Translations under genes and position numbers: made by a program
From: Camelus ferus
Lineage: Eukaryota
Direction of reading: 5' to 3'
Assembly (NCBI RefSeq): GCF_009834535.1
Contig: NC_045696.1
Coordinates: 86,802,001 to 86,866,000, forward strand
Length of the DNA: 64,000 bases
The notes under the pieces: generated by a model
Told to the model about the DNA's origin: nothing
The model's database searches: none
What the model saw: only the letters and a program-made list of their open reading frames with translations
Part shown: positions 18,509 to 58,877 of the stretch, piece after piece
Numbering within the stretch: position 1 is the stretch's first letter
How the letters are laid out: each line of letters opens with the position of its first letter

Positions 18509-18667
18509 GGGAGGGAGGTATATACCTCAGTGGTAGAGCACATGTTTAGCATGTACGAGGTCCTGGGTTCAATCCCCAATACCTCCACTAAAATAAATGA
18601 ATAAATAAATAAACCTAATTACCTCCTCCTCCTAAAAATTAAAAAAAAAATTAAAAATTAAAAAAAA
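18509..18667 (+). mobile_element. tRNA-Ala-derived SINE, camelid Vic-1-like
   Basis: tRNA-Ala-like head (CTCAGTGGTAGAGCACATGTTTAGCATGTACGAGGTCCTGGGTTCAATCCCC, with A and B boxes), then (AAAT)n, AACCTAATTACCTCC and an A-rich tail. TSD CTCAATATTACA (18497-18508) / CTCAATATTCCA (18668-18679). Confidence 0.9.
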
Positions 18668-27212: not shown

Positions 27213-27332
27213 AGATTCCTGTGGTTTATTGACCATTTAAATTATTTAAATGTGATTTGTCTCTTTTCTACTATATCTGTTATTCTTATGTAGTAGTTTA
27301 TATTACTGTTCTTAGTCCCATAAGAACTAATG

Positions 27333-27543
27333 TTGTGCCATAATTTGAGCATTTCTCATCTGCTTTTTTGTCCAGTTGAAAATCGATTTTGCAAGAAGAT
27401 TATCAAACGAGTATTTTGTGCCATAATTTGAGCATTTCTCATCTGCTTTTTTGTCCAGTTGTGCCATAATTTGAGCATTTCTCATCTGCTTTTTTGTCCA
27501 GTTGAAAATCGATTTTGCATGAAGATTATCAAACGAGTATTTT
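27333..27543. repeat. Complex local duplication A-B-A-A-B (A = 43 bp, B = 40 bp)
   Basis: A starts at 27333, 27416 and 27459 (identical copies). B starts at 27376 and 27502 (one mismatch, A27394 versus T27520). Confidence 0.95.
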
Positions 27544-44739: not shown

Positions 44740-47490
44740 GACACAAAGATGTGCCACTGAGGTCCAACTTCAAGGAGGAAAATGATGCCCACATGGAGGG
44801 ACTGTGGTTAGCAGAGAGCCACCAGCTATTAGCTCCTTTAGAGTCAGCCTTGGCTGTAGAGATATACCTATCCTGAAATCATACCCTTTCTGGGTGTGCC
44901 TATACTTGTGTCTGAGGCAGGTTGGGGTAGGCACTGTTGGCACCAGAGCTTCTTATTGACTAGGCTGAGGCTTTCCTGGACCTACAACAAAGTCTCACTT
45001 TTTACTTTGGGGCAAGTCTTTCTTTACATAAGTGATGATTCTTAATAATCTTGTACCCTGTTATAAGCTTAAATGTCTCCTGGCAAAATTCGTATTTTGA
45101 AGTCTTCAACCCCTATACTTCAAATATGACTATATTTGGAGATAGGGTCTCTAAAGAGGTAATTAAGAATAAATGAGGTCATTATGGTCGGCCCTAATCC
45201 AAGACTGGTGTCCTTATAAAAAGAAAAGATTAGGACACAGACACTCATAGAGGGAAGATAATATGGAGACACAGGAATAAGACAGCCATCTACAGGTCAA
45301 AAAGAAAGGCCTTCAGGGGAAGCCAGTCCTGCTGATGCATTGATCTTGGACTTCTAGCCAGAATGTGAGGAAATAGATTTCCATTGCTTAACCCACCCAG
45401 CCTATGATACTTCCTTAATGCATCCCTAGCAAATTAATACATACCCTAACTCTGTCTAAGAATCTGTTTTTTTTTTAAAGTTCGATATATGATATTTGGA
45501 ACCAAAAGTGGTCCAAGAAATTAGTCAATAAGATGGAATTTTGGATGACTCTCTGTGATTGTTTGGTTGGCAAAAAAAGACTCTATCACCGGTGGTAGAT
45601 ACAGCAAACCTCTGACACAAGCTGGCAGTCAGTTGTTGAAACTTTCACCTTTGGATGAACTGGGATTGGGTATAGATGAAAGGGATTGCAAAGTGGGTGT
45701 GTACAAGTCATCTGAGATGTATGAAATAAATAGTCACTGTAAGGCTAATGGTCTCAGATATCTACTGCTAAGTATTATTGATAAATAATAGAAAGTAATG
45801 AAGAACTGAGGGCTGATAACAGTGAACTGAAGCCCAGACATGAAAGCCAGAGGGACTTTTTGTTGCATATAAAGAAGCTCTCATCTCCTGCAAAGGGAGA
45901 GTGGAGAAAATGAAGCAAAGCCCAGTACTTAAAGAGTCAAACTGTCTATAAAGTTCAGCCAGTTAAATGCCCAACTATGGCAGGTAGTGATAACAGGGTC
46001 TGGTCTTGATTTTGAAAACCTGAAACTATGACACATGGAATGAAGGCATCTGGGTGAACACTCTCAAATATTTTAAATCTCTGACACATTTTAAAATTCT
46101 GAGCCAGACAGACTTCTTTCCTTACTGAGAGCACTTTATTTGATCTAGAAGACAATACAGAGGACTTTTACTCCCTCAGACAGCAATGCAACTATGTCCC
46201 TCTCAGAATTTTTTACCACCTCCCTTCAGGGTCACTTAGGACTATAACTAAGGGGTAAATTGTAGTTTATCCCAGCTGAGGACAAGCTGGAGCTAATTAC
46301 AGAATAAGGGAAATATATACCTTAAAAAAGCTGCAAGGTCTAACCAACATCTGATAGGAGATAGGGAATTATTCATGTGACAAAGTGTGAGGGTATTTGA
46401 TCAGACGGGCTGAAATTTAAAAATTAAAAGTCGGGAAAATTCTCAGGCACAAGCTCAGCAATTAAAATATTAAAATGATTGTGGTAGATGGTGATGAAAA
46501 AAATAAAATAAGGTTCAAAAAAGTGGGCATACTGGAATGGCTATACTCTCTACAGCCAGAGGATTCATCAGTCTATTAAGTTCAATGAGAAAGTTGAAGG
46601 ACACACCATTTACCAGAGGTTCTAGGAAAATTCTGCTAAGAGTGACAGACCAGCATCCCTAGATCACTGGTGTTTTTTCCCTGTAGACCAGGACTGATGA
46701 CAGGAGAAGCTGACATAAATTTGGCTTACTGGGGATGGTATGACCCTGCAACTATTAAAACCAGGCAGTGAGATTTCACCCAGAAGCTAAGGTCACAATT
46801 ACCGTATCAGGCATTAAAGTAAGAATGGTAGTGATGGGGACAGAGAGGGTGACTATTTATGGACCGAAGCATGACGTCTGTTTCAAAGGGATCTAGTTTC
46901 TGCCACTGTTAAATGTCCAACCGATCAACAACAGAGACCAGTCTGAGTTCCACACTATGACACCACTTCTCCAGCACATAAACTGCCCACTTGATGGCAA
47001 ATTTACTATGGTGTGATCATTTCAGTCTGTTAGAGCCAATAGTTTATTCTCAAAAGAATACAAACTTATGGCTATGGATTTCTTACCTGCTCACAGGGAT
47101 TCAGCAAGCATCTGACAGCACTAGATCTCACAAAAAAATTATGGCAGACAAGGGCAACTACTAAAGAACAGAGGAGTTGCAATAATGGACTAGTAACTAT
47201 AGAATCCACTGATCGTATCATATAGGATACCATCCAGAAGCTTCCTGCAAGATAGAACATCAGATCTACCAACTAAAGACACAGCTGAAGCAAAAGAGAA
47301 AACAAAGCCCGGTTATTTCAACCTGATGTGGGAAAACAACAAAGGGCACTGTCTGCAAAGGAATTGTTAGAATTGCATCACAGTTCTTTCTCTGTTTAAT
47401 CTTGCTTCCCACTTCCTTTCACAGATGTTAACCACTAACAAATGTCAAATAGCTGAAACTCTGATTCAGGGTCTGCTCCCAGAAACCACG
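44740..47490 (+). mobile_element. Deleted ERVL provirus relic: LTR16-like 5' LTR (about 44740-45494, interrupted), ERV3-16A3-like internal (about 45495-47380), partial 3' LTR (about 47385-47490)
   Basis: The LTR 3'-end motif occurs twice (AACTCTGTCTAAGAATCTG; AACTCTGATTCAGGGTCTGCTCCCAG). Internal start TTGGAACCAAAAGTGGTCC; gag-like decayed segment (TGAAAGCCAGAGGG...TAAAGAAGCTCTCATCTCCTGCA). Confidence 0.65.
45059..45441 (+). mobile_element. MLT1B-like MaLR solo LTR nested in the LTR16-like LTR
   Basis: TG...CA termini and a perfect 5-bp TSD TACCC (45054-45058 / 45442-45446); TATTTGGAGATAGGGTC, GGCCCTAATCCAAGACTGGTGTCCTTATAA. Confidence 0.9.
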
Positions 47491-47629: not shown

Positions 47630-47737
47630 ATAGATATTAGTATATGTATTGTGTGTATAATATTCATACAATTAATAAATATCCATATCATAGTTTTCGT
47701 GTTTAAACACATGTTCTTTCACTTCCTATATGCACAT

Positions 47738-48115
47738 CAGTAGGCATAGTGGTTAAGAAAGAGGCCTCTAGAATCAATCTAAAATACTGAATATAAACCC
47801 TGAACCTAGCTCTAACCCTGCACCTAGCCCTAAACCTGCACCAAGGCCTAACCCTGAATGTAGCCCTAACCCTGCAACTAACCCTAACCCTGCACCTAGC
47901 CCGAACCCAGCACACACACAAAAATGTAAATAAAAGAAAAGAAAAGAAAAGAAAATACTGAATATATTAATCTCCACTTTAGTAAGACAATCTTTCTGTG
48001 CTTGGTTTCTTCATTTAAAAAAAATGAGATTATCTAGTTTATAAAATTGTAATTGTTGATTAAATTAATAGCACACAAAATGATCTATCCAATAAAAAAA
48101 AAACTCAACAAGTTG
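47738..48115 (+). mobile_element. MIR SINE interrupted by the 47796-47951 insertion
   Basis: Head GCATAGTGGTTAAGA lies before the insert; core TCTTTCTGTGCTTGGTTTCTTCATTTAAAAAAAATGAGAT lies after it. Confidence 0.7.
47796..47951 (+). mobile_element. Retroposed telomere-variant minisatellite (about 6.5 x AACCCTGCACCTAGCCCT, then (CA)n and an A-rich tail) with 15-bp TSD
   Basis: TSD AAAATACTGAATATA at 47781-47795 and 47952-47966; units start at 47796, 47814, 47832, 47850, 47868, 47886 and 47904; AATAAA at 47929-47934, then (GAAAA)n. Confidence 0.85.
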
Positions 48116-51100
48116 TAATAATTATTTCCACATATTTCTTTTTAAATCAAGAGGTTCATGGCCCAGAAACCTTGTAGAATACTAAAAGATAGTAAAAGGA
48201 ATTTGCTATTTCCCAAATATTTTGGTAGAAGGAAATAAAGGGAAGCCAGTTAAGAAGAAATGTATTTTCTAGATATGACATCTGATGAAAGAATAAAACA
48301 ACTGTCTATTTGAGGGTGTGGCTAAGCACAATACAAAATATTAAATGTGATATTTCAAAGTCTCTGAGATGGCAAATTCCAGAAGAGCACTGACTTTATA
48401 TGCCTAGTTCTATCACCATAGTGTGTGACATGTATGTGTCAAAAAAAATACTAGCCAGATGACTGAATTAATTATCAATCAAGCTTAAGCTCTATATTCC
48501 CATGAACATATCAGTAGTTATACTTTTCAAACTCCATTAAGGGTTCTAAATCATCAGTGGGTCAACTAGATCACAAATATCTGGCATAATACAGAGTCTA
48601 AGGGAATATATGTGCAGAGTTACAAATGACCAAATTAACAGGACTTTTTGTATCTACTCAATATTAAGATGTGAGATTGCTTCTTAGAGTTTGTCAGTTC
48701 TTCCACACATATAAATATATACAAACGATTGCTCTCACAAATAATAATATACTCAGCCTCATTTTTAACACACGTCATATATGTATGTTGGAACTAAGTT
48801 TACATGTCTAATTTATTATTTATTTATTAAATAAAATACCCTTTTTATTGTAGGATATGTGCAAATTAACACATATGTTGTTTATGCTAAAAATCTTCAG
48901 GATTCTAGACTTCTTGTGAAAGGAATAGATCAAAAGTGACATTTCAGCCTTGAGCAGTTTGAAAAATGTTACACTTTTTATTCTTCATATATTTGCTCAT
49001 TTTATTTTCATTCTTATATCAATCTTTACCAATGGTTAATTTAAATGTTACTTTAAAAAAGCACTATTGGGAATCATAGAAAATACATTTCCCAATGCTA
49101 TATCATATGATCACCTACATGGTTTATTAAGGGAAATGAAGTAAACATCTGAATTATGCCTCAAATGGCCTTGAAAGAACATCTTGTCATTACAAAAACT
49201 CATTTGCAGTAACAAAATGGAAATGCCAATACCAATTTAAAATGAAATATTTTAATGAAAATCATATTTTATACATATATAGCATATAGTTCAAAATAAA
49301 TCTGAAATGACCATCTTCCACACTCCTAGAAGAAAACCAGGTGCTCCGATTTCTTCTTCCATTGTTAATGTGGCTGAACATTAGATTTATTAGAAATAGG
49401 GTTTTAGAGGATATCTTATAGCCATATTAAAAGTCATAGAGAGCTAGGACCAGTAATCCCTACATAAAATGGCTAATGAATAATATAGCTATCATTTATA
49501 TTTTCAGATTTTAGCTAGGGCTCAGGCAGTGATTTCCTCTTGCACTAATCCATCTCGTATCAGTGAATTCAGTTTAGTAAATTGCTTCAATTTTGAAAGA
49601 TTAATGCATTTCAAAACTAGTATGTCCCATCCTAATGCATTTTCTTTCCACAAATAACAGATTCTACTGTTGATTTTTTGGTTTGTTTGTTTTAATTTCT
49701 GACAATCTCAAATAATCTGGTGAAGTAGCAGATACAGTCAAACCACCCTAGTATCTCAAAGGGGCATATGTGAAAATGTACATTTCATGGCGTAAATTTA
49801 AAGAGTAAAAATAGTGCATGCATGTGTGTATACACATATAGTATATGTATGAATATGTGTATATATATATATGCATGTATGCATATTTAAGTATTAGCAT
49901 TTACTATTTTACTGTTTACACTCTTTAAATACATAGATACAGATAGTATTGCCTCTTTTGCTTTCTTTCTATAACTATTTTCCTACACCCAAAATCTACC
50001 TTCTTCAGGGTGCAATAAATCGAGTTACTTAGTTGAAAAAGACAGTAAGTCCAATTTTTATGAGTATGTACAGTGTGTCAAGTTGATTAACCCTTAGTAT
50101 AACATCAGGATCATTGGACCAATTTTTTGTTTTGAGTTTCTTTTTCCAGGAGCTCTGTTTTCAAGCATTCATATTTCTCGAATTTATTCTCTCTTAGAGT
50201 CCTTTCAAAGAACCAAAAGGTAATTTATCTATTTTAATAGAATATAACTATTTCTATCTTGCAATTACCATTTGGATCCACTGAATTCTGTCATAAATGG
50301 AAAATAAATTATGGAATTATAGTGACTTTATTTTCCCTGTATTATGAAATATTTTTCTATTTCATTATTCTAAGAATTGCTTTATCATTATTCAAGACTA
50401 CATTGAATATCCCAACTATGCTGAAAAAGAATAAGTAATAAGAAAACAAAAGAATGATGCAATGACTCAGAAGAATGATGTAAGAGTGAAATAAACTGTC
50501 ATTCTTTCATTTTCTTATTGTCTTACCTGAACTATTGCATCATCTTTTAAGAAGGAATTATAAAAGACTAGGACAGCATCTTTGTAGTCTGCTTTCATAT
50601 CCTTGAACACAGTTGAGAATTAGAAGTTTTAATTCTCCAACCATGATGGCAAAGAGAAGAAATCTGATATTCCATAGTTATAAGATAAATTCAATCACAA
50701 GATGCATGTAAAGAAAAACAAAGCAGCACTCAGATTCTAACAGTATGGTGAAATTTTTCATATTAATGAAATCTCAGACTATGTGTCTTCAGATGATAAT
50801 ATCTTAAATAAATTTTCTCAAACTTAAGAACTAATCATTAAACAATATATTTTCAAGAACAAGAATATAAATACAGTATTCTCCTCCAGTTAGTCATTTA
50901 AAGGAAAGTACATTACAAAATAGTTTAGAATAAGAATCTGAATGATCTCATGTTGTTAAAAGGATATATGACAGTATTGTTTCATCTCCAGTGATGTTTG
51001 TGCACAAAAATTCACTGATTAAAATAGTTTTACTGTGTTTGTTATTATGTATGTTTTATTTAATAAAGGTGCTTTTAGTAATTCTTTATTCTAATACCTG

Positions 51101-56449: not shown

Positions 56450-58877
56450 TGAAAGTGCAAAGCTACGAGATGAGCTTAAATTAACTCTTCAGGTTTAGGC
56501 AGAATTTAAAGGAAAGATAAAGGAGCAGACCTGTGTTTGAAACTAAAACTATCTCATTCCAAGCCTTTAAGTGATCAAGGTACTAAGTGGCTGTACGTAA
56601 TAGATTTAATCTAGTGTGACTTTAAATCCAATAAGGTGGCCTCTGAATCAAAAATATCAGTGGTGAATCTTGTAAAACCCTTTTCTTACACCTCAGGAAG
56701 ATTTAAGGGCATGCCTCACAGACTCACGCAGCTAGACAACTTTACACCTTGCAATTCACAGCTTTGTACTTTATCATAACAAGCCCAAAGAAGCCATTTA
56801 GTACCTGCAGCATTCTTCCTGGAATCCTCCGAGGCCACATCCACAAGTTAATTAGATATCATTTCTACTTTCCAGAACATCTAAAGTAACAGAATTGACA
56901 AGCATTATTTCACCTTTCTCTTTTACTCAATAACAGTATCATTGTCCTTCCAGCCTTCACCAATATTCCTAACATTCAGATTCAAAGCTAATTCCACAAG
57001 TTTTAGGTTTTTGTTTCAGTAATATACTGTTTCTAAAACCAAATTTTGTTGCAGCTGCATATTGTTGCATAACAAGCCACCCGAAAACTTAGTATCTTAA
57101 AACAACAGCCTCATAAGAGTGTTGTCCAAAAGCTGCCTCAAAGATGACCTAAGGTAGGGAAAGGACTTCCTTGGAAAGACGTGTGGGCTTGTTTCACATT
57201 TTGTCTCATTGAGTTGACTATAAATTGAATAAAAGGAACTCACAACATTTTCAAAAGATTAATCCACTGGACTGAAAGGGACAGGGACAGTTTAAAATGA
57301 AGAGTGGCCCCTACACTCTTAAACGTCCATGAACAGGATCCAAACTGAAAAGTTATGCAGCTGCAAATTTGGAATATTTCTAATGGGAAAAGGCAGAGCC
57401 AAGAGCTCAGAGAGTAAAACCAGGAGTCACAGAAAATCATTCCTGGGGCACAGGACTGAAAGCTAATCAAGGAACTGGCAATGAAAACCAGAGATTTCAG
57501 AATTGCTCTGAACTAATGACTTCTATGTGCCTCCCATTTCCCTCTATTTGTAAAAGTAAGTGTGCATTGTACTTTCCCTACCCATCATTTTATTTGGGTA
57601 TATGGAGGGCACAACACTTTGAATTCTGCTACATATTTTTTAGATCAATGGAAATCTCACTTTAAAAACAACCTCTGCACCTGCATCTCCTGATACACAG
57701 GAAATATTTCTGGTTTTGAGTATGATGATTATTGAGATAAATCTTTTGTGTCTTATAGGGAGGAAGGGTATTTTGTGTGAGAGTTACATAAGTAATTGTG
57801 GCTAGAGGGTGGAATATTGCAGATTAATTAATGTTAAGTGTAGATTCTTTGTCATTCCTCTCAAAGAAATGTGTAATCTATTTCTCTACCCTCTTGAACC
57901 TGAACTGTGTAACTGGATCGAGGACAGTTCAATAGAATGCAGTGGAAGTTACTCTGCCAGTTTTTAAGTGGACTGTCAAGTTCTTTGCCTCTCTCTCTCT
58001 TTTCAAAATTGTTACTCTTATCTTTTTATTGAAGTATAGTCAGTTTACAATGTTGTGTCAATTTCTGGTTACAGCATAATGTTTTAGTCATAGATATACA
58101 TACATATACATACATATATTCATTTCCATATTATTCTTTTTTTAGGTTACTATAAGATATTGAATATAGTTCCCTGTGCTATACAGAAGAAACTTGTTGT
58201 TTACGTATTTTATATATAGTAGTTACTATCTGCAAATCTTGGAACTCCAATTTATCCCTTCCTACTCCCTTTATCTCTGGTAGTTGTAAGTTTATTTTCA
58301 ATGTCTGTGAGTCTGTTTCTGTTTTGTAAATAAGTTCATTTGTGTCCTTTTTTTTTTAAGATTCTATATATGAGTGATATCATATGGTATCATTCTTTCT
58401 CTTTCTGGCTTACTTCACTTAGAATGACAATCTTCTGGTCTACCCGTTGCTGCAAATGACATTATTTTATTCTTTTTTATGGTTGAGTAGTATTCTACCA
58501 TATAAATATACCACAGCTCTTTTATCCAGTCATCTGCTGATGGTCATTTAGGTTGTTTCCATGTTTTCGCTAGTGTAAATTGTTCTGCTATGAACATCGG
58601 GTGCATGTTTCTTTTTGAATTCAAGTTCCCTCTGGATATATGCCCAGGAGTGGGATTGCTGGATCATATGGCATGTCTGTTTGTCTTCTCTCTTGACATT
58701 TAGCCTGCTACGCTATGGGAAAAAGCCAAGGTAGCCATGGGGAAGAGAATTTAGGCCCCAGATGATAGTACCAGCTGAGCATTCAGCCAACAACCAGCCA
58801 CTTGCATTTACAGTTTCTAGCCCTTGTCAGGTTACTCCACAAAGAACAGAGATGTGCAGGTCCCACTGAGCAGTGCT

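Follow-up and report, generated by a model that had tools for sequence, protein, structure and literature searches.

In the window analysed here, a 64,000-nucleotide stretch of Camelus ferus DNA, a 156-bp insert of telomere-like repeats is, by a narrow balance of probability, a 5'-truncated L1 copy of a non-coding transcript. That transcript would have spanned a long array, C-rich and degenerate, of an 18-bp unit, and its tail was probably added within the array, at points that varied. The insert was newly found to have relatives, in the form of other 18-mer arrays and A-tailed ends at other loci. It seems to be one member of a small family of array fragments, telomere-variant and tailed, that are dispersed over several loci; the retroposition of the siblings is read from their tails, two of these lying at contig ends.

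The insert lies between two identical target-site duplications (TSDs) of 15 bp at 47781-47795 and 47952-47966 (15 of 15 positions matching), and the 15-mer occurs twice in the whole 64 kb, 171 bp apart. Between the TSDs, the forward strand carries the C-rich 18-bp array, with three telomere-like hexamers per unit and a longest exact telomeric run of 14 bp (47878-47891), followed by a decayed A-rich tail of 38 bp and 71% A (47914-47951) that comprises a short CA run, A5, AATAAA and GAAAA repeats. An L1 endonuclease-type nick site, 5'-TTTT/AG-3', is present on the bottom strand at 47779-47784. The flanks, with approximate bounds at 47738-47780 (including the tRNA-type A box region) and 47967-48115 on the forward strand, resemble a MIR, and we presume that the host element is one; it is in any case an interspersed repeat of some kind, since its right part was aligned by contigs from other loci in two of the sequencing runs described below (X14 and X17). 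The length, the coordinates, the identical 15-mers and the CT/AAAA site are all as given in the preliminary description of this DNA. The L1-type insertion proposed there is likewise borne out, with three of the four features of the class present (TSD, YYYY/RR nick site and A-tail) and matching the L1 hallmarks, the YYYY/RR nick rule and the TTTT/AG site of Table 1 in the consulted portions of PMC4859970. In simulation, 8 of 100 sequences of 64 kb contained, at any position, an exact pair of at least 15 bp at a spacing of 50-300 bp, so the TSD pair by itself is only moderately rare and its weight lies in its placement exactly around array and tail; a chance pair bracketing precisely these two tracts must be far rarer than a pair anywhere.

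The AATAAA noted in the preliminary description (47929-47934) finds no support as a real polyadenylation signal. It lies inside the A-rich tail, and two of the six other A-rich 30-mers in the window also contain one, suggesting that it is probably a product of tail decay and not necessarily a signal.

A tandem-repeat search (TRF) of the array at 47796-47913 returned a period of 18 with 6.6 copies, 81% matches and no indels, and the autocorrelation reached 0.80 at lag 18 versus 0.51-0.54 at lags 6 and 12; the repeat period is therefore 18 and not 6, in agreement with the roughly 6.5 in-register 18-mers originally claimed. With up to three mismatches allowed, the unit matched six times in the window, always within the insert (mean of 0.02 in shuffles), and no second copy of the array was found in the 64 kb. 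The consensus is identical to (CCCTAA)3 at 14 of 18 positions and reads TTAGGG-CTAGGT-GCAGGG on the G strand. A random hexamer-derived 18-mer comes as near to the telomere repeat with P 0.008, making a telomeric ancestry of the unit plausible on its sequence. The likeness is nonetheless degenerate: mismatches per hexamer amount to 1.6 on average over the whole array and to 1.0 over the best four hexamers, whereas short interstitial telomeric sequences (ITSs) are defined by at least four hexamers with fewer than one mismatch per unit (PMC7215372), so the insert is not a short ITS in the published sense. Of the earlier claim of three telomeric-hexamer variants, the 18-bp unit stands, while only one hexamer in three is canonical. 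The G strand of the insert contains only one TTAGGGTTA, from which weak TRF1/TRF2 binding is predicted, and this copy is most likely inert, with no evident function.

The units differ from each other, and the second-hexamer variants of the insert recur at other loci. Had all unit variation arisen after insertion, TSDs as identical as these would be expected with P of about 0.04. The variation is therefore probably older than the insertion and the source array was probably already heterogeneous, as had been suggested.

When public sequencing runs were searched with only the insert as query, 24 were listed; 20 of these contain at least half of 12 sampled words and the other four share 0.00. The 20 runs carry organism labels A, B and C, and 13 were flagged as a possible origin of the window DNA. 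Four of the 20 (X14, X17, X19 and X20, with labels B and C; X14 is genome-sized) were aligned to 47660-48300 at 80% likeness, and the listed alignments cover 24 of 49 pieces and 16 of 25 loose ends, with 30 letters per loose end. The contig records are filtered and run depth is not a copy number, so the depth figures given below are a hint only. The filled locus was seen under two organism labels: the left junction in X20 (record 13) and X19 under label B, and the right junction, with zero differences, in X14 (record 3, label C) and X17 (record 10), the left flank being without cover in X14 and X17. No joint skipping the insert, as expected of an empty allele, was present in any of the four runs, all of which had been picked for holding the insert. 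Both X19 and X20 carry six extra bases behind 47777, 3 bp to the left of the left TSD, so that the host repeat differs here between alleles or between species. Additionally, X19 holds just 0.96 million letters of contigs, yet the locus is present there in a single contig of 163 bp that has the array at its centre; the contigs of X20 are also short and array-centred, through library enrichment or chance.

In X14, one of 19 contigs was at least 99% alike and the other 18 were under 90%, with none between. On their likeness the 18 are other loci, most of them on the array; at least one matches the right flank, and true telomere probably accounts for some. The gap at 90-99% identity means that no near-identical master array was seen in X14, and the source is accordingly lost, absent through filtering or by now divergent. 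Depths of 9-13 were recorded for the listed array contigs, similar to the insert locus and thus at single-copy depth. One of them (X14 record 2, 657 bp, depth 10.3) carries array pieces at 83-160, 224-306 and 571-657, showing that arrays longer than 570 bp exist; related arrays elsewhere, on which the preliminary description had staked its reading, were thus found, some of them longer than the insert.

Three sibling tailed ends were detected. In X14 record 1 (6,993 bp, depth 11.8), about 250 bp or more of array is followed by A13 and then by other sequence, and this locus is also present in X17 and X20; the remaining two, an A-rich end behind 47908 in X17 (A23) and another behind 47834 in X14, reach the contig end, so that one of the three has unique flank. 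As in the insert, all three tails are on the C-rich strand, which upholds the proposed identity of the tailed strand, although the bias among siblings is weak (3 of 3, P 0.125); no T-rich lead occurred among the 16 of 25 loose ends listed. The sibling tails start at differing points of the 18-bp unit, with no AATAAA ahead of them in the listed letters. The preliminary description would have defined a family by dispersed copies sharing one 3' end; related copies are present elsewhere, but the tails listed do not share such an end. These observations fit a dispersed family of low copy number whose 3' ends vary. Seven of the nine distinct joints with known intervening letters hold the 18-bp register (P about 0.008 against a register of 6 bp only). 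The A23 end belongs to X17 record 11, a 98-bp array piece on 47848-47908 in an RNA library, which could be a polyadenylated transcript or a young genomic copy. The RNA-labelled runs were rejected as evidence of expression, as X17 covers unique flank to 48300 and can contain DNA.

The preliminary description had placed the source of the RNA in a subtelomeric or satellite array. A large subtelomeric or heterochromatic satellite of the 18-mer, transcribed antisense to TERRA in the manner of ARIA, is an unlikely source in our assessment, even though the telomere likeness of the unit speaks for it, subtelomeric ITSs contain many degenerate units (PMC7215372, in part) and the array contigs that end within array may be pieces of something long. 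A depth spike of 367-2106 in X14 (47858-47923) was considered as a high-copy 18-mer array and rejected, because it and a 35-bp contig of X20 (47864-47898) coincide with the stretch that fits pure telomere repeat, which is at least 80% alike only within 47860-47909. On the 18-mer-specific part, the X14 depth is about 89-119 versus 13 at the insert locus and, as far as depth can hint, is built of single-copy-depth contigs. No high-depth 18-mer contig or high-copy satellite was seen in the filtered records of the four runs, leaving a high-copy satellite source unsupported, and the searched text of a paper on alpaca satellites names no 18-bp unit (PMC13751797). A low-copy long array is more likely as the source than a homogeneous, high-copy satellite of chromosome ends.

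In the favoured reading, a germ-line RNA would have been made through such a long, low-copy, degenerate C-rich array and would have gained a poly(A) tract at variable points, without a fixed signal. L1 ORF2p would then have nicked TTTT/AG in an old MIR-like repeat and primed on the tail, about 120 nt of array would have been reverse-copied into the site, and the CA and GAAAA runs of the tail may reflect its later decay. The other tailed pieces likely go back to this source or to descendants of it. By the rules of target-primed reverse transcription, tails on the C-rich strand imply that the RNA was C-rich. A parent of this kind is supported by the existence of a polyadenylated C-rich telomeric RNA in a mammal: in CHO cells, ARIA derives mostly from interstitial arrays and about 50% of it is poly(A)+ (PMC13403905, in part), and human ARIA reads are reported at the chromosome 2 fusion site (PMC12242772, in part). 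The tailing of an array RNA without AATAAA is unexplained by the favoured reading and counts against it. The more specific proposition, that camelid germ cells made a polyadenylated, ARIA-like C-rich RNA from a telomere-derived 18-bp array and that L1 retrotransposed it repeatedly, can be put forward only tentatively.

Somewhat improbable, yet the main rival, is that the transcript belonged to a retroelement itself. This could be an active L1 that read through into an adjacent 18-mer array (yielding orphan 3' transductions) or an unrecognised non-autonomous element, SVA- or HAL1-like, with this VNTR as its 3' part, 5' truncation having left array and tail. L1 proteins act preferentially on their own RNA, and this cis-preference favours read-through; such a transcript also accounts for repeated mobilisation and the single strand, and X14 record 1 has 6.7 kb of unread sequence ahead of its array. 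Both 3' transduction and VNTR-bearing elements are established, as described in the available portions of PMC4859970 and bioRxiv 2021.07.12.451456. However, the tails start at differing points of the unit, unlike those of an element with a single 3' end. No one shared 3' end of the SINE, SVA or HAL1 type was found among the copies, for which part of the tail region was skipped, and the retroposon with one fixed 3' end that had been offered as an alternative is weakened by these variable joints. Among the 24 of 49 pieces listed, none from another locus passes 47908 into the insert's tail, which argues weakly in the same direction since 47921-47963 was skipped in the alignments. The 5' loose ends listed on the array resemble further array, the single-copy depth of the sibling contigs makes any family small, and no shared 5' head, promoter or ORF1 was recognised in the insert (ARAGORN and Rfam blank). 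The SVA/LAVA and HAL1 elements are likewise L1-mobilised with internal tandem repeats, and SVA has a C-rich hexamer (PMC4859970 and PMC5753468, in part); in SVA, though, the hexamer forms the 5' end and the tail follows a fixed SINE-R, whereas the array of the insert runs directly into its tail with no head or ORF1 seen.

Two explanations remain. One makes the insert a processed pseudogene of a coding mRNA ending in Asn-Pro-Ala-Pro-Ser-Pro repeats, with its stop inside the AATAAA, and is quite unlikely. The sense frame is indeed open across the array up to a TAA at 47931-47933, but 96.7% of random mutations of the unit leave it open, and of 11 changes 2 are synonymous where 2.35 would be expected. 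No protein was found for a second open sense frame or for the NPAPSP frame, the latter compared with, among others, a collection of 1.84 billion representatives in which 12 of 12 simulated proteins of 50-100 units would pass; short repeats escape such searches, as simulated 7-unit proteins were detected in 0 of 6 cases (E above 50) and five of six 20-unit proteins missed E 0.001. A Pfam hit to Trypan_PARP, in a search that included one reverse frame, was discarded as compositional (E 0.1; 13 bits, the cut-off being 100). Inspection by eye showed an in-frame stop in one sibling contig and frame shifts in others, and the 3' ends differ. The coding parent is therefore disfavoured by an open frame that chance would give (97%) and by the blank searches; no match was obtained to the coding mRNA with NPAPSP-type repeats that the preliminary description had named as a refuting find, at a power that is low below about 20 units. 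The other explanation, a short interstitial telomere written by telomerase and NHEJ, or a minisatellite grown in place, with the duplication from a staggered break, is very improbable. Of 66 ITS loci in the horse, 3 do show direct duplications (PMC7215372, Table 5). Against this, the mismatch level is above that of the ITS definition, and the A-tail and L1-type site are left unexplained, with neither a poly(A) nor a LINE-1 term in the main text of PMC7215372. Telomerase, moreover, cannot write an 18-bp higher-order unit common to several loci, and this shared 18-bp register has largely refuted the explanation already.

Compared with known systems, the insert resembles in anatomy the L1-mediated retrocopies of cellular RNAs, with which it shares the TSD, the YYYY/RR nick, the A-tail and the 5' truncation (PMC4859970 and PMC11727581, in part), but its cargo consists of tandem repeat alone, for which no parent gene is recognised, and the 3' ends vary among copies. 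With short ITSs it has in common a short telomere-like tract at an internal site and an apparently one-step insertion; those, however, are near-pure TTAGGG in the portions of PMC7215372 consulted, whereas the insert combines an 18-bp higher-order unit at 1.6 mismatches per hexamer with an A-tail and a 15-bp TSD. ARIA shares the C-rich telomere-like sense, can be polyadenylated and can come from interstitial arrays (PMC13403905 and PMC12242772, in part); the repeat described here is a variant 18-mer known from DNA, and the main text of PMC13403905 contains no retrotransposition term. The alpaca satellites VpaSat01-13 (PMC13751797, in part) are also camelid tandem repeats, some common to all camelids, but have kilobase monomers and no mention of an 18-bp unit; they were compared by description, so that a sub-repeat is possible, and six array motifs were absent from the spreadsheet supplement of that paper. 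No such element is described in the consulted portions of PMC8605555, PMC4233971, PMC3342881, PMC5753468, PMC11727581 and bioRxiv 2021.07.12.451456. Ten motif matches in the literature were judged unrelated from titles and the starts of abstracts, and no description of the 18-mer repeat or of an L1-retroposed telomere-like RNA surfaced in a search that had most subscription papers, Repbase and Dfam outside its scope.

If the tentative germ-line proposition is true, it would reveal a telomerase-independent route from RNA to DNA that seeds telomere-like repeats at internal sites, and would provide a fossil record of antisense telomeric transcription in the germ line of a normal mammal; the process would then be recent or ongoing, given that two siblings have pure tails of A13-A23. 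Short ITSs are attributed to double-strand-break repair with telomerase (PMC7215372, in part), and an A-tailed, L1-inserted telomere-variant family would add a second route beside it. Such a family would also show that L1 can act more than once on a repeat RNA whose poly(A) signal is not fixed. Should the source instead be an L1 read-through or a VNTR retroposon, the result would still be an uncatalogued camelid repeat family and a phylogenetic marker of modest interest.

Further searches were made with the array and across the window. Rfam gave 0 matches across the window, and two patterns gave 0 matches in viral contigs, lending no support to a herpesvirus telomeric-repeat origin in that collection. 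The pattern search also returned 24 metagenome loci and one prokaryote genome locus; all 25 were inspected and rejected as relatives, being telomere-like or chance runs without an 18-bp peak. Five of the metagenome contigs (L001, L007, L013, L015 and L017, 41-46% GC) have a conserved stretch in common, in which a degenerate telomere-like run lies between similar flanks; it looks like an interspersed repeat from a eukaryote and has no relation to the insert. The GC-rich metagenome contigs L003-L006, L008-L012, L014, L018 and L020-L024 carry internal degenerate CCCTAA runs in gene-like sequence, several of which stop just before a CAG.

Elsewhere in the window, ordinary repeats are presumably represented by the antisense 3' region of an L1 at 58400-58690 and by an MLT-type LTR at 45050-45450. 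ARAGORN predicted a tRNA-Ala at 18514-18588 that is followed by an A-rich tail; the whole of 18514-18650 is probably a camel simple SINE and not a tRNA gene, and we take it to be vic-1. A camel simple SINE of that name is given for SINEBase in the available text of PMC3531059. A young local duplication lies at 27332-27543, where 86 bp are repeated at 99% identity, 126 bp apart, a perfect 43-bp tandem pair being part of it.
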